This document shows, piece by piece, positions 1-48,872 of a stretch of 64,000 nucleotides of DNA. Below the pieces are notes generated by a model, which searched no databases, was not told the origin of the DNA, and was given only the letters and a program-made list of their open reading frames with translations. The translations under genes and the position numbers were made by a program. Within the stretch, counting starts at the first letter, position 1; the number at the start of each line of letters is the position of its first letter. The stretch spans positions 32,001 through 96,000 of IMG/VR virus record IMGVR_UViG_3300031853_000006. One strand, written 5' to 3'. This DNA is from a virus (lineage: Duplodnaviria > Caudoviricetes).

Positions 1-1
1 G

Positions 2-868
2 CTTCCGGCAACAACAAACTTTACGGGTGCGACAACATCTTTAACAGTCGATGCCCAGATGCTTCCGATGAAAACATTTGCAGCTGCAACTGATGCCGAA
101 ATAGCTCAGATGGTTGCAGCCGCTGATGCTGGACAGATCGACCTTTACGAGGATTGCGGATGGAGAGTAGGGCAAGAGCATCAAACAACGATCTCAGCTA
201 TTGCAGTATCTGGTACATACGACGGAGTCACTTGGTCAGTTGGTGAATCACAGCCGCAGCAAACAATAACACTCGTGTTAATGCACAGAGGCCTCTACCA
301 ACTAACAACCCCCGTCCTCGACAAACAAGGCAACCCTCGCAGCACGTGCTCCTTCGTCGTCGGAGTGAAGGATTGCTTGTCTGCTGCTGGCTATATGAAC
401 TTGACAAATACTAACGGAGGCTCGTGGAATGCATCAAATAGAAGACCATGGTGCAATGGAGGATTTCGTCAATCCTTATCGGATAGCTTGCGGTCTGTAT
501 TTAAGCAGTTTGAGACAGTGACGGCTCAAACTTATAGTGGCTCAACAAATCAAACATCGCAAGACTACTTTGCCCTCCCTGCCGCAGCAGAAGTGTTTAA
601 GGGCGACTCGATGTACGGAACTGGAGGTTCGGCAGGTCCAAAAACTGCATACTCAAACCTAACAGAATTCAATGCTCTAACAAGGTTCACATGGTACGGA
701 ACAACGAGCAATAGGGTCAAAACCAGAAAAGATTCCGCCTACCCTTGGCGGGAGCGCTCGCCTTATTACGGCTCCAGCAACCATTTCTGTTTTGTGAGCA
801 ACAACGGCGGTACCGACCTTACCACTGCTAACGGTACTGTTGGATTGTCGCCTTTCGGCTGCTTGTGA
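2..868 (+). CDS. Tail fibre / receptor-binding protein A, 5'-truncated by the window edge; C-terminal DUF6273/C-type-lectin-like tip domain
   Basis: Frame is open from nt 2 (LPATTNFTGATTSLTVDAQMLPMKTFAAA) and is collinear with the middle of ORF 1529..3022; ends in WRERSP...FCFV...GLSPFGCL. Confidence 0.8.
   Translation, partial: LPATTNFTGATTSLTVDAQMLPMKTFAAATDAEIAQMVAAADAGQIDLYEDCGWRVGQEHQTTISAIAVSGTYDGVTWSVGESQPQQTITLVLMHRGLYQLTTPVLDKQGNPRSTCSFVVGVKDCLSAAGYMNLTNTNGGSWNASNRRPWCNGGFRQSLSDSLRSVFKQFETVTAQTYSGSTNQTSQDYFALPAAAEVFKGDSMYGTGGSAGPKTAYSNLTEFNALTRFTWYGTTSNRVKTRKDSAYPWRERSPYYGSSNHFCFVSNNGGTDLTTANGTVGLSPFGCL
439..522 (+). repeat. Inverted repeat IR1-left (84 bp), inside fibre A
   Basis: Exact reverse complement of 1266..1349. 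Confidence 0.95.
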
Positions 869-884
869 TGATAGCATACAAAAC

Positions 885-921
885 AAGCTCCGCAACGTCG
901 TTTAACTTTGCGGAGCTTTTT
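885..921. terminator. Bidirectional hairpin terminator between fibre A and its silent cassette
   Basis: AAGCTCCGCAA / TTGCGGAGCTT stem with A- and T-rich flanks. Confidence 0.75.
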
Positions 922-949
922 CTTTGATTAAGTTGAGAAGATTAGTTTG

Positions 950-1349
950 TTATAAGCAGCCGAAAGGCGCTAACCCAGAAACAATGTTAGCGTAGCGATC
1001 GGCGGCGGAGCCATAGCCGCTAACAAGACAGAAACCGCTGCTGTCGCGGTAACGAGGCGAACGCTCCCACCAATAGTCGGCGGATCCATTCCAATTTTTA
1101 ACTCGGTTACTTGTTGTTTGGTAATATGTTATTGCTGACAACGCGTTTGCTTCGGTAGTTGTGGAATAAGTCCGAGAATTGAAGATTTCCTTTTCAGCGA
1201 ACAGTGCAAAGTAGTCTTGTGAAGTAATATTTGCTCCTCCGGAAGTCGAGCCGCTGTAATCCCCAGTCACTGTCTCAAACTGCTTAAATACAGACCGCAA
1301 GCTATCCGATAAGGATTGACGAAATCCTCCATTGCACCATGGTCTTCTA
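950..1349 (-). other. Silent alternative C-terminal cassette for fibre A (no start of its own)
   Basis: Begins with IR1 (RRPWCNGGFRQSLSDSLRSVFKQFETVT), then diverges and ends WWERSP...GLAPFGCL; in frame after inversion. Confidence 0.9.
1266..1349 (-). repeat. Inverted repeat IR1-right (84 bp)
   Basis: Exact reverse complement of 439..522. Confidence 0.95.
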
Positions 1350-1528
1350 ATCGAGTAACCCTGTCCACAATTCTACGAACCCTCTAAACTCCCACACTGC
1401 AAACTACACTTAAATCTCAACAGACCAACCTTGTTTAATACTACATTGAAGGAGAGTTCTACCCCTCCGATCTTATACAAAGAAACACAACGAGAATTCT
1501 TCAAATACAAGGAAGGAGAAATATCAAT

Positions 1529-3022
1529 ATGGCAACAGTCACAGAGCCTTTATTGCTTGATGAAACCGGTCAGGCAATGATTACGCAACTTGAGAACATC
1601 AATGATGCACTCGAAGTTAAGGTAACACCTGCAACGACTGATAAGTTAGGGCTTGTCAAGCCTGATGGAGTTACTCTTAATGTCACACCCGACGGGACTA
1701 TATCGTCATCTCGCATCTTTGTTCAGGTTCCTGTAGTCAGCGAACAGACCTACACCTACAACGGGCTGACGCAGTACCTCATATTCACATCAATCTCTCG
1801 AGAAGATGTTACTGTCACAGGTGATTCTGCTACTGATGCAGGTAATTACACTTGTACAGTTTCACTTAACAATCCGAACGGAATGTGGAGCGACGGAACA
1901 GTCGCACCTAAAACATTCCCTTGGTCAATTCAGAAAGCAACCGGTTCAATCACATTATCTGAATCATCGCTTTCGCTCGATACTAACACACCCTCCGCAG
2001 TAGTTAATGTAACTATCGTAGGTGACGGAACAGCGACGTTTGCAGCAGAAGACCCAATGATTGCGAGTGCTTCGCCGTCAGTTATAACCTATTCATCTCC
2101 TGTAACAATAACAGGACTCCGGACAGGTTCTACAACGATCACAGCAACATTGGCTGCAACAACAAATTACACAGGAGACAGTGCAACTATAGAAGTTACA
2201 GCTGAGATGGTTCCGTTAAAGACGTTTGCAGCTGCAACTGATTCAGAAATCCGACAGATGGTTGAAGCAGCAGATGCGGGACTTATTGATCTCTACGAAG
2301 ACTGCGGATGGAGAGTCGGTCAAGAGCATCAGACGACTGTTGCAGCAATGGCAGCATCTGGTACATACGACGGAGTCTCCTGGTCAGTGGGTGAGACTCA
2401 TGCAGAGCAAACAATAACACTTGTATTGATGCATCAGGGCTTGTATCAGTTAGTCAACGCAGTTAAGGATAAGCAAGGAAATAACAGGACAACCTGCTCT
2501 TTCGTCGTCGGAATGAAGGATTGCCTTAACGAAGGCGGATATATGAATTCTACTAATACAAATAGTGGTTCATGGAACGGATGTGCAAGAAGATCCTGGT
2601 GCAACTCTGCATTCCGCCAAGCCCTCCCTGCCGATTTAAGAGCAGTGTTTAAGCAGTTTGAAACGGTCACCGCAACGGAGTACAACGCTAGTACGACCAC
2701 AACATCACAAGACTACTTCGCCTTAGCAGCTGCAGCCGAAGTGTTCAAGGGCGATCCTGATTATGGTCAAGGCGGCTCAGCCGGTCAGCAAACCGCATAC
2801 TCAAACCTGACCGAGTTCAACGCACTGACGCGATTCACTTGGTATGAGACATCAGCGAATAGGAGGAAGGCACAAGGACAGAACGGATCTAATATATTTT
2901 GGTATGAAAGGTCACCCTGTGCAGATGTTACAGCGACGTGGCTCTGTGTTAATCAAGGAGGAGGTCCTCGAGGGAGTGGGGCTAATAATCAATTCGGATT
3001 AACATTCTTCGGCTGCTTATAA
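1529..3022 (+). CDS. Tail fibre / receptor-binding protein B (Ig-like stalk plus DUF6273/CLec-like tip)
   Basis: RBS AAGGAAGGAG; LGLVKPDG repeat, T/S-rich Ig-like segments; C-terminal half paralogous to 2..868. Confidence 0.8.
   Translation: MATVTEPLLLDETGQAMITQLENINDALEVKVTPATTDKLGLVKPDGVTLNVTPDGTISSSRIFVQVPVVSEQTYTYNGLTQYLIFTSISREDVTVTGDSATDAGNYTCTVSLNNPNGMWSDGTVAPKTFPWSIQKATGSITLSESSLSLDTNTPSAVVNVTIVGDGTATFAAEDPMIASASPSVITYSSPVTITGLRTGSTTITATLAATTNYTGDSATIEVTAEMVPLKTFAAATDSEIRQMVEAADAGLIDLYEDCGWRVGQEHQTTVAAMAASGTYDGVSWSVGETHAEQTITLVLMHQGLYQLVNAVKDKQGNNRTTCSFVVGMKDCLNEGGYMNSTNTNSGSWNGCARRSWCNSAFRQALPADLRAVFKQFETVTATEYNASTTTTSQDYFALAAAAEVFKGDPDYGQGGSAGQQTAYSNLTEFNALTRFTWYETSANRRKAQGQNGSNIFWYERSPCADVTATWLCVNQGGGPRGSGANNQFGLTFFGCL
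2609..2653 (+). repeat. Inverted repeat IR3-left (45 bp)
   Basis: Exact reverse complement of 3865..3909. Confidence 0.95.
2704..2751 (+). repeat. Inverted repeat IR2-left (48 bp)
   Basis: Exact reverse complement of 3484..3531. Confidence 0.95.
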
Positions 3023-3033
3023 TCTGCAAATCA

Positions 3034-3212
3034 AAAGAACTGCCATCAAAAGGCAGTTCTTTGAATGTACGCAGAAAGTTTAATCATACTAGCCCGCTGC
3101 CTACAACTGTGCGGCAGCGGGCTTCGCGGAGAGTGTTCTGTTCCTCCGCGAAATAAGATAGAGCCATCTAGTTCAGCCTAGTTGCATCAAACCGCCAATT
3201 TTAGGCGGTTTT
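3034..3212. terminator. Cluster of four GC-rich hairpins between fibre B and its cassettes
   Basis: Stems AAAGAACTGCC/GGCAGTTCTTT (3034-3062), AGCCCGCTGCC/GGCAGCGGGCT (3091-3123), TTCGCGGAG/CTCCGCGAA, AAACCGCC/GGCGGTTT. Confidence 0.7.
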
Positions 3213-3221
3213 CGTTTTGTG

Positions 3222-3531
3222 TCACAAGCAGCCGAAAGGCGACAACCCACGAGCATTGCTAGCGTTGCTACCGCCGGCGCTGGCGTTGCCCACAGCACAA
3301 AAACCGTCGCCGTTGTAGCAACGGGGCGAACGCTCCCACCAAGCGGAGGCGGAGCCCTCCACATTTTTAGCTCTGTTGCTCGTTGTCTCATACCACGTGA
3401 AACGAGATAGTGCGTTAAATTCGGTCAGGTTTGACCATGCGGTTCCTTGACCTACTGAAACACCTGTACCATAATCCGGATCCCCCTTGAACACTTCGGC
3501 TGCAGCTGCTAAGGCGAAGTAGTCTTGTGAT
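3222..3531 (-). other. Silent alternative C-terminal cassette B1 for fibre B
   Basis: Starts with IR2 (SQDYFALAAAAEVFKG), no start codon or RBS, ends GLSPFGCL. Confidence 0.9.
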
Positions 3532-3534
3532 TAA

Positions 3535-3909
3535 TCAAAGGCAGCCGAAGGGAGATAGACCATAATTACCTATCACATAATAATTAGTAGGAGTGCCAGA
3601 GCTGCTCGCTAGACACTCATCAGTGTCATTATAGTAAGCAGGCGAACGCTCCCACCAACCATAGGCGGATCCGTTCATAGTTTTGATCCTGGTTGTTGTC
3701 CGATAGTAAGTGATAGCAGTCAGCGCGTTTGCTTCGTTTGTCGTGCTATTGGGATTTGATGCATGAACCTCCTTTTCGGCAAACAGTGCAAAGTAGTCTT
3801 GCGATGTAATGTTTGAGCCTCCGGTTTGATAATTATTAGATTGACCAGTAATGCAGTTAAACTTCTTAAACACTGCTCTTAAATCGGCAGGGAGGGCTTG
3901 GCGGAATGC
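3535..3909 (-). other. Silent alternative C-terminal cassette B2 for fibre B
   Basis: Starts with IR3 (AFRQALPADLRAVFK), ends GLSPFGCL; same FAEKE subtype as cassette 950..1349. Confidence 0.9.
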
Positions 3910-4021
3910 GCTTAAACTCCGTCAAAAATGAAACTACATTATTATATAAGAAACAAAGTAATTGATGAACCTTATTTAATGTTGATGAAATCAATGATCA
4001 CTGGAAGGAGGAAATCTTCAA

Positions 4022-4261
4022 ATGGATAAGAGCACAATGCAAGAAATCGGTGCCATATGGGACAAATTCAATGAACTCGACAAGAAACTTTCTGACTTCA
4101 TTGACAGCGTTCACGGAGTTTCCACAGCCGGCATATCTGAGAATCAAGATAGTATCCTTGATGTTGCAGATCTATCAGACGAGAACAGCACAAGTATTGT
4201 AGAACTCGCTGATATGGTCGAAGACCTTGAGGGAAGAGTAAAAGCATTGGAGGAAAAGTAA
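4022..4261 (+). CDS. Small coiled-coil tail-fibre-associated protein
   Basis: RBS GGAAGGAGG; acidic heptad C-terminus; fibre-locus context. Confidence 0.55.
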   Translation: MDKSTMQEIGAIWDKFNELDKKLSDFIDSVHGVSTAGISENQDSILDVADLSDENSTSIVELADMVEDLEGRVKALEEK

Positions 4262-4263
4262 TC

Positions 4264-4452
4264 ATGGTTAAGAAATACTCAAGACTTCTCGAGCAGAGAA
4301 TCACAAATGAAAAAACCGGATCGACTTGGGCAATCCAGGATGTTCCGAACACTTGGCGTGATGCAACTCACGACAAAGTAATCGCTGACCATTATGTTTT
4401 CCTTGAGGACGGGACAGCTGAGCCGATTCCGCCCAATGAGGACGAAGAGTAA
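4264..4452 (+). CDS. Small CD1375/XkdX-like tail-fibre assembly protein
   Basis: Y..RI.......I.DVP.TWR..T pattern; follows the coiled-coil partner. Confidence 0.5.
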   Translation: MVKKYSRLLEQRITNEKTGSTWAIQDVPNTWRDATHDKVIADHYVFLEDGTAEPIPPNEDEE

Positions 4453-4483
4453 TAACTAGCATAATCAGGAAGGAGAAAAGCAG

Positions 4484-5104
4484 ATGGCCCAAGTAACATC
4501 CCCTCTCCTGCTAGACGGAACAGGCCAGACCATGCTCACGAAACTCGAAGGAATTCGTGCAGCACTTGCTGCAGAGGTAACCCCTGCAACAACAGCAACG
4601 GCAGGTATCGTCAAGCCGGACGGAACCACAATTACAATAGATGGTAACGGAACCATTTCAGCTGCCGTAGCCCCTGCAACAACATCGGTCGCAGGTACTG
4701 TAAAGCCGGACGGAACCACCATTACCGTCACCAACGACGGAACAATTTCTGCAGATGTTGCCTTTGCAACAACCGCAAAAGCAGGTACTGTAAAGCCGGA
4801 CGGAACGTCGATCACAGTATCGAATGACGGCACCATCTCAGCACAAGCAGGCGAAATGGTGTTCCAGAGTCACTTAATAGAAGCATCAGGATGGTCAAGT
4901 AACGTATATTCATTTGAGCTGGAATATCCGAGTGCTTCATATGACATTCTTGACATCACACCTAGTGAGACTGCATCAGATGCACAGAGAAAAGCATGGA
5001 TTTCGGCAGATTGCGGTGGGTTCAGAGCAACTAACACAATTTATGCACACGGAACCGTGCCCACAACCGACATTCCCGCAGTATTGCTAGTAAGGTCAAA
5101 GTAA
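4484..5104 (+). CDS. Short tail-fibre-like protein with three AG.VKPDGT.IT...DGTISA repeats
   Basis: N-terminus MAQVTSPLLLDGTGQ paralogous to fibre B; ~78-bp tandem repeats at ~4580-4840. Confidence 0.7.
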   Translation: MAQVTSPLLLDGTGQTMLTKLEGIRAALAAEVTPATTATAGIVKPDGTTITIDGNGTISAAVAPATTSVAGTVKPDGTTITVTNDGTISADVAFATTAKAGTVKPDGTSITVSNDGTISAQAGEMVFQSHLIEASGWSSNVYSFELEYPSASYDILDITPSETASDAQRKAWISADCGGFRATNTIYAHGTVPTTDIPAVLLVRSK

Positions 5105-5183
5105 CAAGTGTGTTAGCTAATAAAGACACTTGCATATAAACAAATTAACAACCAAAAACTATTCAGATTGGAGGAATAAAAAC

Positions 5184-5513
5184 ATGAGAGCTGTTATTCT
5201 TGCAGACGGAACACGTATTGATAATGTCAGCGATTCTAGTTCAGTTGATGCAATTCTTGCCATCAGAGAGAACTACGAAGCAGCAGGAGCTGTTCGCGAT
5301 ATCTTTACAGCAGAGAATTCTACTTCTTTCGAGATCGTAGATGAGGAAGGAAAGCAGATCGCAGTAGCATCAGAGGTTATCCTCGGTGACGGTGCACAGC
5401 TGTATTCTACAGAGGGCGGAGTTATCTGCCAGGTTAACTTCCGTGCTAAGACTGATGTAGAGATTCTTCAGGATGAAGTTAAAGAGCTTCAGGATGCTGT
5501 AATCGAGGGATAA
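5184..5513 (+). CDS. Tail-fibre-associated protein
   Basis: Start MRAVILADG after GGAGG; ends ELQDAVIE. Confidence 0.55.
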   Translation: MRAVILADGTRIDNVSDSSSVDAILAIRENYEAAGAVRDIFTAENSTSFEIVDEEGKQIAVASEVILGDGAQLYSTEGGVICQVNFRAKTDVEILQDEVKELQDAVIEG

Positions 5514-5526
5514 GGAGGACAAAGAC

Positions 5527-5676
5527 ATGAGTAAATCAATGGCTAAGATCTGGGCACGTCGCATTCACGACGGCGCTTATACACTCGACGATGTGAAAGC
5601 AAAGTACGGCGAAGAGGGAGTTCAGCAGGTTAAGGAAGCTTACAGACAGCTTTTCGGTACAGACATTCCGGAGTGA
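5527..5676 (+). CDS. Small CD1375-like protein (49 aa, absent from the ORF track)
   Basis: AAGGAGG RBS; MSKSMAKIWARRIHDGAYTLDDV...; terminator at ~5699-5735. Confidence 0.65.
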   Translation: MSKSMAKIWARRIHDGAYTLDDVKAKYGEEGVQQVKEAYRQLFGTDIPE

Positions 5677-5757
5677 CACATAATTAACAATTAAGAGTAA
5701 GGGACGTCTAACATCAGATGTCCCTTTCTTTTTTCTTCTAAGGAGGAATAAGCTGTA

Positions 5758-6135
5758 ATGAACATCGAAGCTGCAACATTGAAGTATTACAATGCAAACA
5801 ACCGAGGGAACAGAACGAGTGACTGCGTAAAACGTGCATTGTCGTTAGCTCTAGATATTTCATACACCGATATTTCTAAACTCCTCAATGCAGAGATGCA
5901 TAGGCAGCACGAAGATGCATGGAACTATCCTAATGTTTACGGGAAAGTAGCTAAAGATCTAGGATGCTCTGATTGGATGTATGATGGAGTTATAAACGAA
6001 AACGGCAGGATGAAATTAGACGAATTTGTCGACACGGTGCTTGATCCTAATAAGACCTACCTTGTGCATACAGGGAGGAGCGCTTCAGCTCTCAATCATA
6101 CGAAAATTTTATTTTCTTTCCGCAAGTTTCGTTAA
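5758..6135 (+). pseudogene. Phage gene truncated by the TnpB element (N-terminal part)
   Basis: NN.G.RT.DCV.RAL motif; sequence turns AT-rich after ...ALNH at ~6099; an orphan start-less C-terminal ORF lies at 7616..7738. Confidence 0.55.
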
Positions 6136-7614
6136 ATTATTTATTAAATATAACGATTCTTACGAATTTTCACTGAATCTATAAGAATCTAGTGAAATAT
6201 ATAACCTTAAATATAATTAGATATCTAAACAAAGAATGAGAAAGGAGGTGAAACATATGAAAACTTGGAAATCTAACCTTAAGCATCTTAGTCTAAAAGA
6301 TTATGAAATCCTTCGTGATATGTGCCATGCAAGCAAGAATGTTTACAATGCTTCGCTTTATAACATTCGGCAACATTTCTTTCAACAAAGCGAATTTCTT
6401 CGATACGAAGCTAATTATCACTTGATGAAAGGTACCAATGTCTACGATTATCTTGGTAATGTTGCCCAGCAATCTATGAAAGCAGCTGACAGTGCATTCA
6501 AAGCTTTCTTTGCTTTGATTAAAATGTATAAGCAAGGCAAGTTGGAGAGTAGGCCTAACATTCCACATTACTTACCTAAAGATGGATTTTTCAAAATCGA
6601 GTTCAACAGCCCTAGGGACCAGAAGAAGAATATCGAGCAAGGCTACTATCAGCTACCAATGTCTCGATACCTTGCAACCAAGTACGAAGGCATCAGGGTC
6701 AAGATAACAATTCCGCCTTACTTGCGTGACAAACATATTCGACAGATCCACATCATTCCTAGATGCAATGGCAAGTACTTCGAAGCCTGTTTCTTGTTTG
6801 ACGATGTCGAAAATCAAAAAGTTAATCTCGATTTAACTAAAGCATTAGCAATTGATTTAGGTGTCAACAATTTTGCAACTTGCGTAACTTCTGAAGGAGA
6901 TTCATTTATAATTGACGGTAAGAAAATCAAATCAATCAACCAATGGTATAACAAAGAAAATGCCAGACTGTCAAGTATTAAGTATAAACAGAAGTTAAGC
7001 AAAGAGGCAACCAACAGGCAAGCACGATTGTCCGCAAAACGAGGACGCCGCATCAATGATTTCATCTATTGTTCTGCAAAGTACATAGTTGAATATTGCA
7101 TCGATCATAACATTGGTAATCTTGTTGTAGGATACAATGACGGCTTTCAGGATAATCCTAATCTAGGTAAAGTCAACAATCAAACCTTTGTGATGCTACC
7201 TTACGGCAAATTCAAAAGCAGGCTCGAACATTTATGCAACTCGGTTGGGATAACCTATACCAAACAAGAAGAATCTTATACCTCAAAAGCAAGTTTCTTT
7301 GACCTAGATGATATGCCAATTTGGAACCCTGATAATCCTCATCAAGGCAGCTTTTCTGGGAAGCGAATCTATCGAGGTCTGTATAGAAGAAACAATGGAA
7401 CTAATCTTAACGCTGATGTAAATGGAGCGCTAAATATCCTAAGAAAATGTAATGTTGTAGACCTTTCGGTCTTATACAGTAGAGGCACTGTCGTCGTGCC
7501 TACAAGAATAAGGCTATCCTGACTTTTTCAGGAGGAAACTCAAACAGCAACCTTCTTGCGAATAGAATTCTATTAAAAATCTTAATGTAACTTGATAATT
7601 TTTAATTTATTCTA
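6100..7614 (+). mobile_element. Solo-TnpB element (IS200/IS605 superfamily, no TnpA)
   Basis: AT-rich island with tnpB and end hairpins at ~6100-6132 and ~7563-7614; ends approximate. Confidence 0.7.
6257..7522 (+). CDS. tnpB: RNA-guided endonuclease TnpB
   Basis: RuvC motifs AIDLGVNN, VVGYN (rearranged, with QEESYTSK) and NADVNGALNI; N-terminal SKNVYN. Confidence 0.92.
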   Translation: MKTWKSNLKHLSLKDYEILRDMCHASKNVYNASLYNIRQHFFQQSEFLRYEANYHLMKGTNVYDYLGNVAQQSMKAADSAFKAFFALIKMYKQGKLESRPNIPHYLPKDGFFKIEFNSPRDQKKNIEQGYYQLPMSRYLATKYEGIRVKITIPPYLRDKHIRQIHIIPRCNGKYFEACFLFDDVENQKVNLDLTKALAIDLGVNNFATCVTSEGDSFIIDGKKIKSINQWYNKENARLSSIKYKQKLSKEATNRQARLSAKRGRRINDFIYCSAKYIVEYCIDHNIGNLVVGYNDGFQDNPNLGKVNNQTFVMLPYGKFKSRLEHLCNSVGITYTKQEESYTSKASFFDLDDMPIWNPDNPHQGSFSGKRIYRGLYRRNNGTNLNADVNGALNILRKCNVVDLSVLYSRGTVVVPTRIRLS

Positions 7615-7823
7615 AGACGATAGTAAACGGATAGAGTTTGAAGCTTATGACTCAGCGTCTTTGAAAGCCATGTTGCAGAGGTATCGAGAAACTGGGGAAG
7701 TACCCTGGGAGGATTACTCGGTATCAGAGGAATACTAAAATCGTTAAAAAGAGTAGGGCATGGGTTCCTACTCTTTCTTTACAAAGATCAAATATAACTA
7801 GAAAGTGGAGTAGAGCAGCAAAA

Positions 7824-8033
7824 ATGATACGTTGGAAAAAACAAGAAGACAATACACTCAGGAGTGAAGATGATAGATTCTTAATAGTAGAATCACATGA
7901 TAGCGCACATGGAGATCAGTGGATCTTGCATGATCAAAAAGATGCACTTACAGGAAGCTACGCCTTTCGTACGCAGCTTGATTGTAAGCTAAAGGCTGAA
8001 ACACTACATAAGTTATCGAGGCCTAAATTCTAA
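7824..8033 (+). CDS. Hypothetical protein
   Basis: RBS GGAG; ATCGTTAA motif upstream. Confidence 0.55.
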   Translation: MIRWKKQEDNTLRSEDDRFLIVESHDSAHGDQWILHDQKDALTGSYAFRTQLDCKLKAETLHKLSRPKF

Positions 8034-8081
8034 AAACACCCAAGAAGAACCTTTAATAATCATTGAGGAAGGTATCAACAC

Positions 8082-8417
8082 ATGACTAAAGAAGAGAAAA
8101 TCCTCACCATAACAGAATCATCTGATTTCCATTGTTTATTGGAATTGATGTTACCCCTGTATGACATAGATGAATTTGCATGGTTGCCAGAATTATTCTC
8201 TATCATAGGTCATGAAAGGCTACTTCTACTTGCACGATATGCAGGAGGGGAAACATTGCGGATACCTTCTCTTGACGAGATTTCTCATGCAATCGAATCG
8301 CTTGATTGGTACTATCGTGTATATATAAAGCGAAGCAAACGACGCAAGTCAATTCCGCCTGAATATATTCATTCAGTAGATAAGATCAAAGAGGTGTTCG
8401 ATGCTGCAAGAGATTAA
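8082..8417 (+). CDS. Mor/C-like DNA-binding protein (putative)
   Basis: LARYAGGETLRIP resembles the Mor L...GG..IYIP motif. Confidence 0.45.
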   Translation: MTKEEKILTITESSDFHCLLELMLPLYDIDEFAWLPELFSIIGHERLLLLARYAGGETLRIPSLDEISHAIESLDWYYRVYIKRSKRRKSIPPEYIHSVDKIKEVFDAARD

Positions 8418-8604
8418 ACAATACATAGCAGAGCTTCCAGATGAACCTTTCGAAGATTATTATCAGCGTTATATCAAAGAATCGCAAGATAAGGCAATTC
8501 GTAGGGATTTGAAAGTAGCTTCGCAATCGCTTACACAACTGGAAGATACAGTTGATATAATCAAAGGATTAAACAAACTAACCGAGGAGTTGGGACGGAT
8601 ATGA
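8401..8604 (+). CDS. Hypothetical protein
   Basis: GAGGTG RBS, overlapping operon. Confidence 0.6.
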   Translation: MLQEIKQYIAELPDEPFEDYYQRYIKESQDKAIRRDLKVASQSLTQLEDTVDIIKGLNKLTEELGRI

Positions 8605-8969
8605 CCTTATCATCTCAGGAATTCAGAAACGCATACGAAAAATTCTATAGCTCATTTAGGAATTACCTGTGGCCCTATCGAGTAGTTGAAGATCTCGCTA
8701 ATTTTGAAGTAGAGATCTTTAGTGCGTTCAACGACCTTGATAGCACTCGTAATCTTTTAATGAAGCTGAGTAAGCCCATTGAGGAAGTAGTCAAGGAGTT
8801 TGACGATAAAAAACTCGAAGAAAGATTTAATGCGTTCTTTGAATTACTTGATGAAGTTGAAGCCGATAAGATGTATCTTACATTACCGCAAGTTGAGGAG
8901 GTTACCACTAATGAAAATAAGCAAGACAAATCCGAAGAAGTCAATAAAAGCGAGCTCGCAGCAGACTAA
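8601..8969 (+). CDS. Hypothetical protein
   Basis: ATGA coupling with the upstream ORF. Confidence 0.6.
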   Translation: MTLSSQEFRNAYEKFYSSFRNYLWPYRVVEDLANFEVEIFSAFNDLDSTRNLLMKLSKPIEEVVKEFDDKKLEERFNAFFELLDEVEADKMYLTLPQVEEVTTNENKQDKSEEVNKSELAAD

Positions 8970-9186
8970 GGAAAACATTCAAGCATGTGACGATGCAGAT
9001 GCAATCGTGCTGATCCAGGAGGAAGCAGCTGCAGATCCTACTTGCTGCTGCAAGTACGAAAGATCGCTTGAACTTATCTCGGCAGCTATTGAGTCACTTG
9101 CAGAAATTGCAAAAGACGATCAGATCGCAAAAGATTCAATTGCTAACTTAGGAGTAGTAATGCTCGATCTCAAGAGCAATTGTTAA
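8911..9186 (+). CDS. Hypothetical protein with basic leader (MKISK...IKASS)
   Basis: GAGGAGG RBS before ATG 8911. Confidence 0.6.
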   Translation: MKISKTNPKKSIKASSQQTKENIQACDDADAIVLIQEEAAADPTCCCKYERSLELISAAIESLAEIAKDDQIAKDSIANLGVVMLDLKSNC

Positions 9187-9217
9187 ACTAACAAAAAAAA
9201 ATCGGAGGATTGAACAC

Positions 9218-9634
9218 ATGAAAAGAGTAATCAGAGCATCAGCATACGACAACGCTACTATATTTGAAGACGAGAATTATATATTCAAAAAGGAGCATGG
9301 TATCGGCGTGAACGATACTCCGTATTACGGGTTAGCTGTAAAAGCGAAAAACGGATCGCCAGCAGATAAGCACGTAGTACAAGTCAGACTCAACAGCGAT
9401 TTTCCTAGGTATGAGGGAGCCCCTGTAGGAATTACTTATCAGGGTGCATATGTGGCTCACGGAATGCGAAGCTCAACAGATACGTGGGATGACACACAAG
9501 AATACATCGAAGTACTTCAAGATTCGCTTGATTTCGCAAAGAAAGTAACACAGTGGATCAAACATAACGGCTACGACAAAGTTAATCCGGATGTCGAGCC
9601 TGACTATGATGACGATTACGATCTTGATGAGTAA
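9218..9634 (+). CDS. Putative internal virion protein (MKRVIRAS leader)
   Basis: First 8 aa identical to ORF 41882. Confidence 0.55.
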   Translation: MKRVIRASAYDNATIFEDENYIFKKEHGIGVNDTPYYGLAVKAKNGSPADKHVVQVRLNSDFPRYEGAPVGITYQGAYVAHGMRSSTDTWDDTQEYIEVLQDSLDFAKKVTQWIKHNGYDKVNPDVEPDYDDDYDLDE

Positions 9635-9831
9635 TGTAACTAAGCAACCTCAATAAACCCTATCCATACATTTTAGGACAGAATACACCTACTTACACAT
9701 TGTTTTTCTTCCTAAAAGAGGAGCGCATTCGGCAATTGTTGAGTGCGCTTTTTCTTTGTAATCGTTGGACTGATTAAACTAACTAATACTTGAACCTTAT
9801 ACAATAATGTACTAATTTTTCGATATAATTC

Positions 9832-10059
9832 ATGAAAGGTATTTCAAAAATGGATGCAAAGCAGAAAATCAAAGAGCTGAGATCTAGAACAGGCTTATCA
9901 CAACAAAAATTCGGCATGCTTTTCAAGATGTCAGCAATCAATATCTCTAACTGGGAGCAAGGAGTAACTAAACCTCCCGAGTATGTTGTATACATGCTAG
10001 AAAGACTCATGGAATTGGATCCTGATATTCCAAAAGTAACTAACAAGGAGAATAACTGA
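9832..10059 (+). CDS. XRE-family HTH regulator
   Basis: IKELRSRTGLSQQKFG...ISNWEQG. Confidence 0.85.
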   Translation: MKGISKMDAKQKIKELRSRTGLSQQKFGMLFKMSAINISNWEQGVTKPPEYVVYMLERLMELDPDIPKVTNKENN

Positions 10060-24312: not shown

Positions 24313-26568
24313 ATGCCTAAAGCAATCAATCTAACTAGCACACAAGTAGAAGAACTGAAACAGCTAATTGCAGACGGCACTACACAGCAAAACGCTTGCA
24401 AACATTTTGGAATCTCCGAAAGTAAGTTAGCAGCTATTTGCAAAGAGAATAACATTGAACGCAAGTGGGTTAGAGAATATACTTGTGTTCTGTGCGGAAA
24501 GGTCTTCAAGGCATCTCATAAATCTGCTATATGTCCTGAATGCAAAGCTACTCCGAATGTGTGTGTAATCTGCGGAAAAGCATTCCCAAAGAAGTATTTC
24601 CCTTACAATCAAAAGACGTGTTCCGCTAAATGTCGAGGAGCATACAGAGCTCAATCCGGCACCGCAAAAGCAGGAGCACAGAAAATGAAAGAAACTAAAA
24701 TGGAGCGCTACGGCACGCTAGATCCTGCGGAAGTAACTAAGAAGAAAAAGGGAGGAGAACTTGATCCCAAGATCTGCCCATTGTGTGGAAAAGAATTTGT
24801 ACCGGATACTCCTAGACAAGTCTACTGCAAAGATGTTCATTATGTTCCCTGTCCGGTCTGTGGCAAGATGACAGAACTCAAAGATATTTCTATAGGCCCT
24901 CAGGCTTGCTCAGAAGGATGTAGAATGGCAAGGATCAATCAAACTTGCCTAGAGCGATACGGGAATAAGGACGCAGTCAATTCGGAGCACGCGAAGAAAC
25001 TGGGAAAGCAAACATCGCTTAGAAAGTATGGCAAAGAATATTACATGCAGACTGATAAAGCGAAGCAGCATTACAAAGATGTTATCCAAGAGAGATATGG
25101 AGTCACAGCTCCTATAGCATATCCAGAATTCAAGGAGAAGGCTAAGCGGACTAATCTGGAGAAGTATGGAACAGAGTATGCTTCACAGTCTGAAGAGATA
25201 AAAGAAAAGGTTAGACAGACTAATCAAGAGCTCTATGGTGGGGCAGGCTTCGCTTCGCCTATATTACGCAAGCGCATAACAGAAACAAACAAAGAGCGGT
25301 ATGGAGTAGAATTTCCAGTGAGCAGCCCAGAAATCCGACAGAAGATATCTCAGTCCCTTCGTGATAATTATGGAGTAGATAACTTCTGGAAAACCAAAGA
25401 AGACTTAGCAAGACGGATCAAAGATCCAAGAAAGATTGACGATTACTACGCATTTAAGCAAGATCCTAGAGGGTATGTAGAAAGCCATTACGAAGATAAA
25501 CCTCCAATCTATGTACTAGCAGATGATCTGGGAGTCACAGATACGCCCATTTATGATATACTCATCAACGCGAAATGTCAAGATGTAATAGATAGAACTA
25601 AACAGTCTAGCATGGAGTATGAAATCGAGCACTTATTGCGAAAGCTGGTGCCCGATGCAGAGATATGGGTCAATTGTAGACGAGTTCTTCCTGAAAATAA
25701 AGAGATTGATTTCTACTTGCCAGAATACAAATTCGGCATTGAATGTAATCCAACTATCACGCATAATTCTACAGTGTCTGCATGGAACCCTGGAGTAGAT
25801 CCCGCGCTGCCCGTCAGTTATCATAAACAGAAATCAGAACAAGCCATGCAGGTAGGCGTGTTCCTATTTCATATATTTGGATATGAATGGACAAACAAAC
25901 GAGCCATAATAGAATCAATGATTGCAAATATCTTAGGCAAAAATACAAATAAGGTCTATGCGAGGAATACACAGATAATACAAGTAGACGCGCCGACGGC
26001 TAAGAAGTTTCTAGACGATAATCACCGCCAAGGAGGGACTAACGCACCTATCAGATTAGGGCTCAAAGATAAGATTACTAACGAATTAGTGAGCCTCATG
26101 ACCTTTGGAAAAACACGTCCTAGTATCGGAAAGGAGCAAGATGCATTAGATACAGATTACGAATTGATACGATTCTGCAACAAATTGGGTACATCTGTAG
26201 TCGGAGGAGCGTCGAAGTTATTTAAGCATTTCTTATCAGAATATGCCCCAACAAAAGTGATATCATTTTCTGACATAGCACATACTAAAGGAGGACTGTA
26301 CCGGACACTAGGGTTCAAGGATGTAAGTCATTCTGATCCCGGATATGTATGGGTGAAACATTACACTGACGAATACCGAAACCGTGTATCCTGCCAGAAG
26401 GCGAACCTTCTAAAAATGTTTGACGATGTGACAGAAGAGGATATTGAAACAAAGTCAGAACGAAAAATCATGATAGACCACAAATACGTACAGGTTTACG
26501 ATAGCGGAGTCATACGATGGGAGTATACTCCAGTATCGTTAAATAGTGCAGAAGATGGAGGTGAATGA
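24313..26568 (+). CDS. Free-standing homing-endonuclease-like protein 1 (HTH, Zn ribbons, T.LERYG repeats, PD-(D/E)xK/Vsr-like nuclease, GNAT/Mom-like C-terminus)
   Basis: CxxC clusters, EIDFYLPEYKFGIECNPT.TH, NHRQG...YELIRFC...GGASKL...YDSG. Confidence 0.75.
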   Translation: MPKAINLTSTQVEELKQLIADGTTQQNACKHFGISESKLAAICKENNIERKWVREYTCVLCGKVFKASHKSAICPECKATPNVCVICGKAFPKKYFPYNQKTCSAKCRGAYRAQSGTAKAGAQKMKETKMERYGTLDPAEVTKKKKGGELDPKICPLCGKEFVPDTPRQVYCKDVHYVPCPVCGKMTELKDISIGPQACSEGCRMARINQTCLERYGNKDAVNSEHAKKLGKQTSLRKYGKEYYMQTDKAKQHYKDVIQERYGVTAPIAYPEFKEKAKRTNLEKYGTEYASQSEEIKEKVRQTNQELYGGAGFASPILRKRITETNKERYGVEFPVSSPEIRQKISQSLRDNYGVDNFWKTKEDLARRIKDPRKIDDYYAFKQDPRGYVESHYEDKPPIYVLADDLGVTDTPIYDILINAKCQDVIDRTKQSSMEYEIEHLLRKLVPDAEIWVNCRRVLPENKEIDFYLPEYKFGIECNPTITHNSTVSAWNPGVDPALPVSYHKQKSEQAMQVGVFLFHIFGYEWTNKRAIIESMIANILGKNTNKVYARNTQIIQVDAPTAKKFLDDNHRQGGTNAPIRLGLKDKITNELVSLMTFGKTRPSIGKEQDALDTDYELIRFCNKLGTSVVGGASKLFKHFLSEYAPTKVISFSDIAHTKGGLYRTLGFKDVSHSDPGYVWVKHYTDEYRNRVSCQKANLLKMFDDVTEEDIETKSERKIMIDHKYVQVYDSGVIRWEYTPVSLNSAEDGGE

Positions 26569-26569
26569 C

Positions 26570-28582
26570 ATGGCAACTTACACCTGCAAACGGTGCGGAA
26601 AACAGTTTGACCTAAGAGGTTTCAGCAAGTATTGCAAAGAATGTCGTGATTACTACACACCTTGCGTTATTTGCGGAACTCCAGTGCACCAGACGAATCC
26701 GGAAAATGAAGCTAAAACATGTTCAAGAAAGTGTGCAGGGCTGTATAGAAAACAATCTGGAATAAGTAAAGCTACTGCGGAGAAATCGATAGCGACTAAG
26801 AATAAGAAGTACGGCAACGGGTCAGGGGCTAAGTACAAGCCGAGGAAGTGTAAGCTCTGCGGAAAAGAGTTTATCCCAAATGGTTCAAAACAAGTTTACT
26901 GCAAGAATCCACATTACGGTCCGTGCCCTGTTTGCGGTAAGCAAACACTTATAAGGGAATTAAGCAAAGGACCGAACGCTTGTTCAGAAGAGTGTAGAAT
27001 AGCTCTTATTACTAAGTTAGCGAGAGAGCGCGATAATACCGAGTCGCTGAAGAAGAACCGGCAGACTTGCTTAGAAAGGTACGGAGTTGAATATTATTCC
27101 CAGACTAAAGAGTGGCGTGACAAAGTAGCCGAAACGTCAATGGAACATTACGGAACTACTTGCCCGCTAGCTAGCCCCGAAATTCATGAACAACTTGTTA
27201 AAACTAATATAGAGAAATATGGCTATGCTAATCCTGCGCAAGCTCCTGAAATAATTGAAAAGATTTCAAAGACTTTAGAAGAGCGTCATGGAGGTTGCGG
27301 AATGGCATCTGACGCAACACGTGAAAAGATATATGCAACTAACAAAGAACGCTACGGAGATATCCACCCTGCAAGGACTTTACAATGTAAGGAGAAGGGG
27401 AAGCAAACATCGTTGGCTCGTTACGGATACGAAAGCTATGCAAGTACTAAGGAAAGCATTGCACGTAGTATGCTAGATCCTAGCAAAATTGATGACTTCT
27501 GGAGCTTTCGCGCAGATCCTGAAACGTATGTAACATCTCATTACAAAGTGAAACCATATGCAGATGAATTAGCTGCCGATCTAGGATTCAATGAAACATC
27601 TGTATATGACATATTGATCAACTTCAACTGCAAAGATGTAATCAATCGTAGCAAAACTTCTATTATAGAAAGAGAGATGTACGAGTTCCTGACTACATTA
27701 GTCCCCGAATCTGAAATCAGAAAATGTGACAAACGGACAATCACCCCACTAGAATTAGATTTCTATCTGCCGAACTATAATTTTGCAATTGAATGCAATC
27801 CAACATATACTCACAATTCCTCATTCAAGTCCTTCGGAGAGGGTGAGCCTAAAACAACAGTGTACCACAGAAACAAAACAGATAAAGCAGAAGAAGCTGG
27901 GATATTTCTGATGCATGTTTTCGGGTATGATTGGCTTTATAAACAGGACATCATTAAATCGATGATACGCAACGCCTTAGGAAAATGTGATACTACAATT
28001 TACGCCCGGAATACAGAAGTAAAAGAGCTAGATGCAAAAACTACTCGTGAGTTTCTCAACACTAATCACAGACAAGGTGATGCATCATCTCCTATCAGAT
28101 TAGGTCTAATAGATAAGCAGACGAAAGAGCTTGTTTCAGTAATGACGTTTAGCAAACCTCGTACAACTATCGGAAGTAGTGCAGATGATCCTGAAGGATC
28201 TTATGAGCTTGTCAGATTCTGTAGTTTGCTAAATACTTCTGTAGTAGGAGGGGCTTCAAAACTATTCAAGTGGTTTAGTAGTAACTATAATCCTACAAAG
28301 ATAATATCATTCTCAGATAGAGCGCATACTCGAGGAAACTTATACAGCTCCTTAGGTTTTCACGAAGTTCGAAGATCTGATCCCGGTTACGCATGGGTCA
28401 ACGTATACACAGAAGACTACAAGAGCCGTGTAGCCTGCCAAAAACACAAACTCCCTCAGCTATTTGACGACGTAACTGAAGAAGATATGAGCAATAAGTC
28501 AGAACGAATCATAATGATGGAACATAATTACGCGCAAGTTTATGACAGCGGGACAATACGATGGGAGCTAGAACCCCGTTGA
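26570..28582 (+). CDS. Free-standing homing-endonuclease-like protein 2 (paralogue)
   Basis: Same architecture; GGAGGTG RBS before MATYTCK. Confidence 0.75.
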   Translation: MATYTCKRCGKQFDLRGFSKYCKECRDYYTPCVICGTPVHQTNPENEAKTCSRKCAGLYRKQSGISKATAEKSIATKNKKYGNGSGAKYKPRKCKLCGKEFIPNGSKQVYCKNPHYGPCPVCGKQTLIRELSKGPNACSEECRIALITKLARERDNTESLKKNRQTCLERYGVEYYSQTKEWRDKVAETSMEHYGTTCPLASPEIHEQLVKTNIEKYGYANPAQAPEIIEKISKTLEERHGGCGMASDATREKIYATNKERYGDIHPARTLQCKEKGKQTSLARYGYESYASTKESIARSMLDPSKIDDFWSFRADPETYVTSHYKVKPYADELAADLGFNETSVYDILINFNCKDVINRSKTSIIEREMYEFLTTLVPESEIRKCDKRTITPLELDFYLPNYNFAIECNPTYTHNSSFKSFGEGEPKTTVYHRNKTDKAEEAGIFLMHVFGYDWLYKQDIIKSMIRNALGKCDTTIYARNTEVKELDAKTTREFLNTNHRQGDASSPIRLGLIDKQTKELVSVMTFSKPRTTIGSSADDPEGSYELVRFCSLLNTSVVGGASKLFKWFSSNYNPTKIISFSDRAHTRGNLYSSLGFHEVRRSDPGYAWVNVYTEDYKSRVACQKHKLPQLFDDVTEEDMSNKSERIIMMEHNYAQVYDSGTIRWELEPR

Positions 28583-44508: not shown

Positions 44509-45495
44509 TTACTCGACTTCATTGGTGTATTCGTATTCATCTAAATAATCCGTCGTGATATAATCATACCTCTTTTTCATCTCAATCACGTTGTCTCTTG
44601 AATTGACTTTCCGCAACCCCTCTTCCAATCTCCAATATACGTCATACATGCCCTCTTTCACAAGTTTCACAGACAGCGACTTAAGAAGTTCTGGACTAGC
44701 TAATGACCTCGGGACTACACATTTGAAAGAATCAATTCCAATTGTATTCAAAGCCTCGCCCATCAACTTAGAATAATAATTTGGATTCATATAGTTGCCT
44801 CTCGTGCCGAAGTCCGCAAGATAAATAACACCTTGCTTCCGTTCAAACCGCAAAACTTGATATAATATCCCATCATCGACTAATCCAACAGAAGTATGAA
44901 TCTTCCCGAATTTAGGACAAACACGTTGCCCATATCGCTTCAAAAACTCAACACTCGCCCTTTCTTTCAATACGTAGACCTGCATGTGTTCTTCTTCAAT
45001 TCTAAATAAAGGGCCATCTGGGTTCGGCAAAGTCTTGAGAGGGAATTCAGTCAGTATCGTCTGTGTGAACTTATCCTTAATTGTAGTTGATAAACTTTCA
45101 GATTTCTTGAGTTTCTTTATATTGTCTACTCCATACTTACGCTGTAAGGTTTCAACTCCTTTCCGATAGATTTCAGGAGATTGCATCGCGTAGTCAACTC
45201 CGAATTTCTTTTGCATTGTCGCTTTTGCTTTCTCTCTTGCTTCTGGATTATTACCAGGGGCCTTCATTCCATATTTCTTCATACTAGTTTCCTGCGTACG
45301 CTTAACTCTGCAAGCATACGAACACGCAACCGGAGGCCGCTTCAAGTTATCATCATTAGTAACTAAGTATCTCTTACCACAAACAGGACAGTTCATATAG
45401 TGAGGTTCCTTACAGTATTTTTGAGAAGCTGTTTTAGGTATGAAAGGCTTTCCGCAGAATTCACAAATCTTCTCCTTTTTGAAATCATCTTCCAT
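44509..45495 (-). CDS. Degenerate homing-endonuclease-family protein 3 (Zn ribbons and KYG repeats, no clear nuclease motif)
   Basis: CEFCGK.F.P....QKYC...H...CPVCG as in paralogues; own TTGACT-17-TATAAT promoter at 45558-45586 (-). Confidence 0.65.
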   Translation of the reverse strand: MEDDFKKEKICEFCGKPFIPKTASQKYCKEPHYMNCPVCGKRYLVTNDDNLKRPPVACSYACRVKRTQETSMKKYGMKAPGNNPEAREKAKATMQKKFGVDYAMQSPEIYRKGVETLQRKYGVDNIKKLKKSESLSTTIKDKFTQTILTEFPLKTLPNPDGPLFRIEEEHMQVYVLKERASVEFLKRYGQRVCPKFGKIHTSVGLVDDGILYQVLRFERKQGVIYLADFGTRGNYMNPNYYSKLMGEALNTIGIDSFKCVVPRSLASPELLKSLSVKLVKEGMYDVYWRLEEGLRKVNSRDNVIEMKKRYDYITTDYLDEYEYTNEVE

Positions 45496-45647
45496 GTGGT
45501 CACACTTCCTTTCCGGTTTTAGAGCCATGTGGTGCTGTCATGTGATTAGTTGTTTTCATTATAATATAGTTTAGTCGAAAAGTCAATATGTAATCTTAAA
45601 TATTTTCGTAACATCAACATAAATCAAACACCGAAAGGAGAAATCAT

Positions 45648-47078: not shown

Positions 47079-48740
47079 TTATCTTTTCCATTCAAAAACC
47101 ATCTGGCCGCAGTCATAAACGGATCGCCAACCGGATCTAATCATCAGTGCTTCATTAGAAGTACCTTTTCCGTAGTTTGTATGAAAAAGTTGATCAAAAC
47201 CTCGTTGACGCAATAAATTATCAGTTACGTATTCAACACCTCTTGACCAGACCTTTGCGGGACTTGATGTATGATGTAAGGACATACCAATCTTTTCATA
47301 TACTTCTCCATTGAATTTTGCTCTATCGCAATAACTGATGATAGATTCAGGATTTACTTCTTTCAAGAACTTTTGGAACATTTTAGAAGCTCCCCCTACG
47401 ACTTGATGCTTAGAGTCTGTACACAGTCGTAAAAGTTCCCATTCATAATTTTTATTATATCGAGGTTTGCCAAAAGTCATTACGCTCAGTAACTCACCTT
47501 GATAGAATAGTGCGTAGGCGTACTTAGCACCTCTCGCATCTCCTTGAATATGGTTACGTTGAATGAATTCAGTAACATCTTTAGGATCCACAGATTTAAC
47601 TTCACATCTCCTAGCATATATTTTTTCTTTTGGCAACACTAAGTTAAGAACTTTTTCTCTTTCATCCCAATCAAATACATGAATACATCTATAGCCATTG
47701 TCCTGTGCTAACCTTGATCTCTCAATGTGATACCTAGGATCTTTTCCTACAGACTCCCAGTGGTTAGGCAGGTCTGAATGAGTATAGGACGGATCAATCT
47801 CAACTACTATATTAGTTCCAAGCACTCGCATATCAAACCATTTACCATCAATATATTCTTCTTCCTTCACTTTAACTCCATTACTTTCCAAGAATTCCAT
47901 GAATTCTTGATTGACCTTTGATGACCTACCTGTTCTGTTTTCTAGCATAGCTTGTCGTGCCTTTTCTTGACTTTCAGGAAGTTGCAAAGTGCATTTTACT
48001 CCATATCTTTCTTCGCAAGTCTGCATTGCTTTCTCTCGTGATTCGGGTATCATTCCAGAATAAGGGACGCCATGGTTAGCCATAAGTGTTTCCATCATAG
48101 CAATCTGAACGATTTCGCTCTGTGCCGGATAATTCGTTCCATATTTTTCACGACACGTATCAATGTGCTTTTGTCGTACTTCTTTGCTCTTTTGTACTTC
48201 ACTCATCTTCTTGCGTAGTTCAGGAGATTCATCCGGATTAGTAACTCCGTACCGTTCCATCATAGTTGCTTCTATTTTCTGCCGGAGCACTGGAGAAGCA
48301 GTACCGATACCTCCGTACTTGGATTCTAGAGTTGCTCTTGCCTTCTTATTGGTCTCAGGAATCTTGGCCTTGATCTTCTCAACAGCCTTGTCGTGAAACT
48401 CCTTGACTTGACTCGGATTGCGTACTCCGTATTTCGCTTCTAATGTATCCTGTGCTTTCTGTATTTTTAATTTAGATTCGCACTCTTTGGAACATGTGTA
48501 ACGGACAGCACCGTATTTCTCACTCGGCACTTTCATAGCTATGGGTCTTCCGCAGACTAAGCAATCCAGATAATGAGTGCGTTTGCAATAGCGCTGTCTG
48601 CTCCCGTTACGTCCTTCTCCTACAAACAACTTCTTACAAAGCGGACACTCTTTGACTTTCGGAGTATCTTTAGTAACTCCAGAATAGTTATAATCATCAG
48701 CAGAATATACTTTTTGCATAATTTCTTCGTGAGATAGCAT
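47079..48740 (-). CDS. Free-standing homing-endonuclease-like protein 4 (nuclease plus GNAT/Mom-like)
   Basis: FDMRV...VEIDPSYTH; NHIQG...WELLRLC...GGASK...YDCG. Confidence 0.75.
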   Translation of the reverse strand: MLSHEEIMQKVYSADDYNYSGVTKDTPKVKECPLCKKLFVGEGRNGSRQRYCKRTHYLDCLVCGRPIAMKVPSEKYGAVRYTCSKECESKLKIQKAQDTLEAKYGVRNPSQVKEFHDKAVEKIKAKIPETNKKARATLESKYGGIGTASPVLRQKIEATMMERYGVTNPDESPELRKKMSEVQKSKEVRQKHIDTCREKYGTNYPAQSEIVQIAMMETLMANHGVPYSGMIPESREKAMQTCEERYGVKCTLQLPESQEKARQAMLENRTGRSSKVNQEFMEFLESNGVKVKEEEYIDGKWFDMRVLGTNIVVEIDPSYTHSDLPNHWESVGKDPRYHIERSRLAQDNGYRCIHVFDWDEREKVLNLVLPKEKIYARRCEVKSVDPKDVTEFIQRNHIQGDARGAKYAYALFYQGELLSVMTFGKPRYNKNYEWELLRLCTDSKHQVVGGASKMFQKFLKEVNPESIISYCDRAKFNGEVYEKIGMSLHHTSSPAKVWSRGVEYVTDNLLRQRGFDQLFHTNYGKGTSNEALMIRSGWRSVYDCGQMVFEWKR

Positions 48741-48872
48741 GCTTTGCACCAATCCTTTCTGATAATTATATAACGATTTTAGTATGGTTGACCTAATTAC
48801 GCGGTACACCTTACATCTATACGAACCTTCAATAAGTATACAAAATACCTAACTAAAGGAGGATCAGTACGC

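Follow-up and report, generated by a model that had tools for sequence, protein, structure and literature searches.

We analyzed a tail fiber locus in a tailed phage (Duplodnaviria; Caudoviricetes) represented by the linear 116,896-bp IMG/VR record IMGVR_UViG_3300031853_000006. Positions 32001 to 96000 of that record make up the 64,000-nt stretch that we call the window. The locus combines three full-length fiber genes with eight silent tip cassettes, and seven of the eight cassettes are headed by a block of high sequence identity whose partner lies in inverted orientation in every case (7/7). Exchange at these blocks would splice a stored tip in frame onto an expressed fiber, and the record has no match to the known families of serine, tyrosine, or IS110-type recombinases. 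On this evidence, the chances that tips are switched by homologous recombination between the inverted repeats seem to us about even.

The record is 78% complete by CheckV. The source run is Logan sample SRR9036418, with the ENA assembly ERZ27256883, a 145,798-bp assembly of the same phage that has the gene content and order of the record and reaches ∼28.5 kb past its 5′ end. In Logan, the phage was present in one run only, from a bovine gut metagenome (0.97 of the sampled words matched). The searches for recombinases, reverse transcriptases, and template repeats described below covered the 117-kb record, and ∼19 kb of the 145.8-kb genome is unread. Phage genes include those for a T4-like portal, an NAD-dependent DNA ligase, a helicase, TnpB, and an Amidase_2 protein that is likely the endolysin.

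A tblastn search with fiber FB against the whole record returned eleven tip-coding units within 9.6 kb (genome 26312 to 35921). Three of these are full paralogous fiber genes (F0, FA, and FB; 495 to 497 aa) ending in a DUF6273 tip, and eight are 5′-truncated tip cassettes without promoter or start codon, with homology lengths of 65 to 252 aa. The units are ordered F0> c1> c2> <c3 c4> <c5 FA> <cA FB> <cB1 <cB2, where the arrowheads give the strand. Only the 3′ part of FA and the units cA, FB, cB1, and cB2 lie in the window; F0, cassettes c1 to c5, and four more inverted head blocks lie upstream of it, at genome 26312 to 31252, which equals window −5688 to −748 and L001 1312 to 6252 in the two other coordinate systems used here. 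An earlier note on this DNA had described two tandem shufflons allowing 2 × 3 = 6 tip combinations, which is an undercount given three genes, eight cassettes, and a locus that extends 5.7 kb further upstream. The units and spacers in the window are as follows.

Window 1 to 868, plus strand: 3′ two-thirds of fiber FA, with the DUF6273 tip (full gene at genome 31381 to 32868, 495 aa; start 619 nt upstream of the window).
Window 869 to 949: FA/cA tail-to-tail spacer; it contains a hairpin that has A/T runs next to it on either strand.
Window 950 to 1348, minus strand: silent cassette cA (homologous over 132 aa, start-less, with its stop at 950 to 952).
Window 1529 to 3022, plus strand: fiber FB (497 aa).
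Window 3023 to 3221: FB/cB1 tail-to-tail spacer, with terminator-like hairpins (scan match at L001 10189 to 10211, plus strand).
Window 3222 to 3530, minus strand: silent cassette cB1 (102 aa; a stop directly upstream closes the frame).
Window 3535 to 3909, minus strand: silent cassette cB2 (124 aa; head-to-tail against cB1 and tightly packed).

The cA frame is closed by a stop 7 codons before the homology begins. The hairpin at 869 to 949, judged by eye, is a putative bidirectional terminator; it was not listed by the hairpin scan, and its loop is longer than 8 nt. Further upstream, a 23-bp exact inverted repeat flanks the c2/c3 module (genome 28173 to 28195 and 29891 to 29913). Its copies are parts of two homologous leaders with 14-bp-stem hairpins (genome 28173 to 28234 and 29824 to 29913; L001 3173 to 3234 and 4824 to 4913) and occur nowhere else in the record.

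The exact runs within the head blocks measure 68 nt in F0/c3, 64 nt in c3/c2, 84 nt in FA/cA, 48 nt in FA/c5, 48 nt in FB/cB1, and 45 nt in FB/cB2. The seventh block, c5/c4, is 53 nt long at 89% identity, and c1 has no clear head block. By chance, the longest exact run expected is ∼9 nt, the paired sequences being 52 to 67% identical overall, and the identity of the head blocks is far beyond this level. In the whole 116,896-bp record there are six exact inverted repeats of at least 30 nt, and all six head cassettes of the fiber locus. The blocks with arms in the window are as follows.

Window 289 to 397: right arm of FA/c5, 109 nt long with 90% identity and an exact run of 48 nt at 289 to 336; it pairs with genome 31100 to 31208, where minus-strand c5 has its 5′ edge.
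Window 434 to 522 and 1266 to 1354: arms of FA/cA, 89 nt long with 98% identity and an exact run of 84 nt (439 to 522 and 1266 to 1349), coding for RRPWCNGGFRQSLSDSLRSVFKQFETVT.
Window 2609 to 2659 and 3859 to 3909: arms of the FB/cB2 block (51 nt at 98%, 45 exact at 2609 to 2653 and 3865 to 3909), coding for AFRQALPADLRAVFKQF.
Window 2704 to 2851 and 3384 to 3531: arms of FB/cB1, 148 nt long with 86% identity and an exact run of 48 nt (2704 to 2751 and 3484 to 3531), coding for SQDYFALAAAAEVFKG...

The three exact pairs of 84, 48, and 45 nt had been reported in the earlier note as locus-specific coding sequence, and both their positions and this description were confirmed. FA's second partner, c5, is new to the present analysis. 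The blocks always start at the truncated 5′ edge of their cassettes. Past the block, identity drops to about half or less in FA/cA, FB/cB2, and c3/c2 and declines stepwise in FA/c5, FB/cB1, and F0/c3, with indels appearing. Taken as a whole, the pairs have reached saturation at synonymous sites (pS, 0.5 to 0.9). Saturated tails beyond identical heads suggest that the heads are young or homogenized and the tails old, and this occurs in seven separate instances. The fiber locus has no exact direct repeat of at least 30 nt, as would be expected if recombination were active, because direct repeats would lead to deletion. The only exact direct repeats of that length in the record lie outside the locus, at genome 8332 to 8375 and 13818 to 13861 (44 nt) and at 95085 to 95124 and 100825 to 100864 (40 nt).

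Because the FA/cA, FB/cB1, and FB/cB2 repeats have the same translation in gene and cassette, fusions at these blocks are in frame. Five simulated inversions (FA × cA, FB × cB1, FB × cB2, F0 × c3, and FA × c5) all gave in-frame fibers of 484 to 499 aa. As the earlier note had proposed, the cassettes in the window are start-less and come into frame on inversion: their minus-strand frames are open and end in ...PFGCL and a stop, and the simulated products of the three in-window pairs (in the order FA × cA, FB × cB1, FB × cB2) are 485, 494, and 484 aa long. Simulated exchange of FA with c5 flips the FA promoter and N-terminal part onto c5, yielding a 499-aa fiber.

All eight cassettes keep an open frame from where the homology begins through to the family stop. 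In every pair, silent-versus-silent comparisons included, pN is well below pS (dN/dS is 0.13 for cA and cB2); judged by these substitution patterns, the silent cassettes are under purifying (coding) selection. A scan for ribosome-binding sites found matches at the true start of FA and FB only, and these are strong (AAGGAAGGAG; FA site, AAGGAAGGAGAAA), with a weaker AAGGGGGA upstream of the ATG of F0. The sole match in the cassettes is internal, in the VKDCL codons, and FA has the same match at the homologous place; the cassettes are thus predicted to have no ribosome-binding sites of their own. Among the eleven units, the silent tails of c3 and cA are the nearest to tips that are expressed in other phages, with up to 75% identity.

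The C-terminal half of the fiber protein is the C-type-lectin-like Pfam domain DUF6273. FB consists of an N-terminal helix, two Ig-like domains, and a 268-aa C-type-lectin-like tip. As Ig-like domains dominated the full-length fold search, the tip was folded separately, and its AlphaFold model has a pLDDT of 96.6. In a related locus (L008), a 59%-identical homologue lies directly behind genes for a baseplate J and a Mu gp48-like protein in a myovirus tail module, a position that supports the label of tail fiber or receptor-binding protein. In the window, a 206-aa protein (4484 to 5104, plus strand) has three tandem 90-nt repeats (4563 to 4842) coding for ..PATT...G.VKPDG.T.., a motif that occurs once near the N-terminus of each fiber. 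This protein may be a fourth fiber-like protein that shares the N-terminal module and has no lectin tip.

The earlier note had seen no recombinase nearby, which held in our scans and can be extended to the rest of the record. Six-frame searches found no serine recombinase (PF00239; 12 of 14 control genomes positive), no tyrosine recombinase at an E value of ≤0.001 (PF00589; 14 of 14 controls positive), and no IS110/Piv-type enzyme (PF01548 and PF02371; DEDD_Tnp_IS110 and Transposase_20), and the PF00589 search likewise gave no integrase. Pfam and PHROG scans of the neighboring open reading frames (ORFs) yielded no recombinase family. RecA was also absent from the record in a six-frame search, and the control genomes were positive in the IS110/Piv and RecA searches too. 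In the ENA assembly, a 400-aa RecA_N protein, identified from a precomputed Pfam match, and clamp-loader-like proteins are encoded 4.7 to 5.9 kb upstream of the record start; among the Pfam matches in the 10 kb preceding the record, neither a recombinase nor RVT_1 was flagged. TnpB is encoded 2.3 kb downstream of the last cassette (window 6236 to 7522, plus strand; 428 aa; OrfB_IS605 and a Cas12f1-like TNB domain), in a single copy and with no TnpA. We rejected it as an RNA-guided driver, as the 16-mers downstream of the gene match the locus once (15/16 in c4) with no extension, i.e., at the level of chance. In window positions 1 to 10000, Rfam gave no family above E = 0.3, and thus no omega-RNA.

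Nor do the blocks have a site in common. They sit at four protein positions, coding for MVAAADAGLIDLYEDCGW, for ..TCSFVVGVKDCL.., for ..FRQ.L...LR.VFKQF, and for SQDYFALAAAAEVFKG. Even with up to 3 mismatches allowed, no k-mer of 8 to 14 nt recurs in every one of the seven blocks (the best occurs in four, three of which are homologous), and there is no short conserved motif at the cassette edges or upstream of the eight cassette heads. The sequence GTRTTYAAG, which the earlier note had offered as a possible degenerate core, does occur in all three repeats within the window; the four blocks upstream lack it, and we rejected it as a general recombinase core. Homologous recombination and an enzyme guided by such a core had been left as alternatives. 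The former fits better, given the four block positions, the lack of a shared core, identity that runs to the truncated edge, and the RecA-like gene.

A dedicated recombinase could nevertheless act in trans on short cores inside the repeats, encoded in the unread ∼19 kb or by the host, as nearly all known tail fiber inversion systems (Gin, Cin, Min, and Rin) use one and as the record is incomplete. We consider this unlikely. Trans-acting invertases do exist (Mpi is an example cited in PMC6109161), but the negative results for serine, tyrosine, and IS110 enzymes take in 117 kb, and the Pfam matches in the next 10 kb add none. Likewise, the hsdS invertons pair long coding repeats with a tyrosine recombinase, but the seven blocks studied here have no motif in common, and a fixed-site enzyme leaves unexplained both the identity up to the truncated edge and block lengths of 45 to 109 nt.

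Under homologous recombination between the inverted repeats, a crossover within a block would invert the intervening DNA and join the N-terminal part of a fiber in frame to a stored tip, while the displaced tip would turn silent. Access to cassettes c2 and c4, which pair with cassettes c3 and c5, would take a second step. The enzyme would likely be a phage RecA/UvsX-like recombinase or the host RecA rather than a site-specific invertase, and heteroduplex repair during exchange could keep the blocks identical while the tails diverge. The rate of inversion and the identity of the enzyme are the parts of this mechanism that we infer. Homology over some tens of base pairs is enough for RecA and T4 recombination. 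The repeats are long, mutually different, and locus-specific, and their exact runs of 45 to 84 nt are long enough for recombination of the RecA type. Genomes of the cyanophage A-1(L) group isomerize at inverted repeats of 400 to 700 nt, as proven by polymerase chain reaction, with no dedicated recombinase identified (bioRxiv 10.64898/2026.02.14.705889).

Several observations weigh against a working switch. A single sample carries the phage, there is no second isolate, and the flipping of tips is something we infer from sequence. Both assemblies show one identical arrangement, probably from the same reads. Among 5.8 billion clustered proteins, which included 226 homologues, there was no chimeric isomer. 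The Logan contigs of the phage's run and of three relatives' runs contained no strand-changing joints, but these contigs (k = 31) break at every repeat and cannot report orientation, because the k-mer content is the same in both orientations when k is shorter than the repeat. Two cassettes would be poor substrates, since the c5/c4 block reaches only 89% identity and c1 has no clear block. An invertase might also be encoded in the ∼19 kb that is unread. Finally, none of ∼12 related loci (42 to 59% identity) has a cassette array, each having one or two fibers, and selection for the architecture is therefore not shown comparatively.

The relatives' loci came from scans of viral_contigs, metagenome_contigs, and genome_contigs and consist of single or tandem fibers, several with diversity-generating retroelements (DGRs). 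In related rumen phages (95 to 99% identity), homology to F0 and FA ends near L001 2056 to 2084 and 7320 to 7379, inside the F0/c3 and FA/c5 blocks, and they skip whole cassette blocks. Both features fit exchange at block joints. In one relative (L011/L012), DUF7487 proteins of 749 and 574 aa adjoin two tandem DUF6273 fibers and an endolysin. In the window, DUF7487 proteins are encoded by minus-strand ORFs at 44509 to 45528 and 47079 to 48809, and two large ORFs of comparable size (751 and 678 aa) lie at 24313 to 28582.

The single arrangement seen, along with relatives that lack the architecture and differ by cassette loss or gain, could also mean that the locus is a static relic, in which scars of interphage recombination and inverted duplications have built up in a hypervariable fiber locus over evolutionary time, with no switch. 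Phage fiber loci are recombination hotspots (bioRxiv 10.1101/2024.10.15.618418). We nevertheless find a relic improbable, as it does not account for eight silent frames that have stayed intact despite synonymous saturation, with pN below pS, or for the placement of all seven blocks at a 5′ edge with an inverted partner when the genome has no other long inverted repeats. The tidy packing of the cassettes, with stops directly upstream of the homology, also speaks against it. Gene conversion as in pilE/pilS or vlsE, in which cassettes would be copied into the expressed gene via homology at both of their ends, the head block on one side and the conserved ..LSPFGCL codons (14 to 27 nt exact) on the 3′ side, with no inversion, is very doubtful: it would use silent, start-less cassettes and RecA too, and 3′ ends are conserved at the DNA level (27 nt exact in c1/FA and 21 nt in FA/cB1), but the 3′ arms are short, the inverted orientation of every strong partner is left unexplained, and plus-strand c2 and c4 pair with cassettes, not with genes.

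The origin of the tips may lie in DGRs, a link that had no place in the earlier note. The related loci L008/L009 and L010 carry bona fide DGRs on a homologous DUF6273 tip, with an RVT_1 gene downstream, and the mismatches between template and variable repeats fall at template adenines in 18 of 19 and 22 of 23 cases, respectively. A third relative, L014, has an inverted 85% tip repeat (4300 to 4432 and 6104 to 6236) that is DGR-like by layout alone. The repeats of the two DGRs and the matching pattern in the last ∼45 codons of the tips in the window are located as follows.

L008 11771 to 11907 and 12455 to 12591: template and variable repeats.
L010 6330 to 6468 and 8007 to 8145: template and variable repeats.
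Window 745 to 868, 950 to 1110, 2880 to 3022, 3222 to 3380, and 3535 to 3700: DGR-type pattern.

The tails studied here align with the relatives' variable regions and have NNC or NNT where the templates read AAC or AAT. Compared with the relatives' templates, they are 38% identical where the template has adenine and 65% identical at the other positions. The final ∼25 nt of the tips (..LSPFGCL) are conserved at the DNA level and resemble an initiation of mutagenic homing (IMH) site. The NNC/NNT pattern and the alignment to variable regions make the tips look like DGR products. In the 117-kb record itself, there is no RVT_1 (the control genomes were positive in this six-frame search) and no template repeat: blastn with the eleven tails matched the eleven units only, none of which is AAC-rich. 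A larger picture is possible, and we offer it tentatively, as something short of probable. In it, a large virulent rumen phage would have a programmed, reversible host range switch with no site-specific recombinase, its own RecA/UvsX-type recombination shuffling eleven C-lectin tips among three genes, and the tips would be archived variants made by a DGR, i.e., a frozen DGR library reused by inversion.

To our knowledge, the known inversion-based host range switches in phages all require a dedicated invertase together with one short site. If the present locus flips, general recombination and selected coding repeats would suffice for a multigene tip library, and inversion finders keyed on recombinases or short repeats would fail to detect systems of this kind. 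The locus also links two diversification strategies on one receptor-binding domain: its relatives mutate the tip by a retroelement, while here ready-made versions are stored and could be swapped. In the ecology of rumen and gut phages, a single genome may stand for mixed host specificities.

The closest functional parallels are the Min (p15B), Gin (Mu), and Cin (P1) systems, in which alternative fiber 3′ ends likewise lie in inverted orientation until an inversion fuses them in frame to a constant 5′ part, with nested segments and many isomers. Their serine invertase is encoded adjacently and acts on one short site. The Gin/Cin/Min crossover site is 26 to 34 bp long, and sfx, the site of the R64 Rci shufflon, is 19 bp. 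Here, in contrast, PF00239 is missing from 117 kb, the blocks are 45 to 109 nt long, mutually different, and spread over four protein positions, and one library serves three genes. In the Rin shufflon of Bifidobacterium prophages, start-less C-terminal cassettes of a gut phage receptor-binding protein are likewise swapped by inversion, but by an adjacent tyrosine invertase with an 11-bp rix before each cassette (Mavrich et al. 2018, PMC6109161), whereas the present locus has neither a PF00589 match nor a shared short site.

The hsdS invertons of bacteria (Streptococcus pneumoniae, PsrA/CreX) also have silent partial genes, in-frame swaps, and long coding repeats, and they differ in their target protein and in having an adjacent tyrosine recombinase gene. 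Long coding inverted repeats thus have a precedent. At the long repeats of hsdS loci, residual inversion without the recombinase has been reported. Some inversions persist after the nearby recombinase gene has been deleted (Milman et al. 2023, PMC9881135). Neisseria pilE/pilS and Borrelia vlsE likewise keep a promoter-less variant archive beside an expression site and use general recombination; theirs is nonreciprocal gene conversion, whereas the inverted geometry here predicts reciprocal inversion. In the isomerization of cyanophage A-1(L), as in herpesvirus and plastid genomes, inverted repeats also flip DNA with no dedicated recombinase identified, but those repeats are at least 0.4 kb long and flip whole gene blocks without splicing coding sequence. 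The DGRs on C-lectin/DUF6273 tips (BPP-1 Mtd; tentaclins, PMC10743442) share the tip domain and the C-terminal NNC/NNT variable region with the present tips, but they have no use of, or explanation for, the inverted head blocks. By its predicted logic, the locus is a tail fiber inversion system like Gin, Cin, Min, and Rin and departs from all four in enzyme and site; it is of interest for its recombinase-free design, its size, and its link to DGR-type tips.

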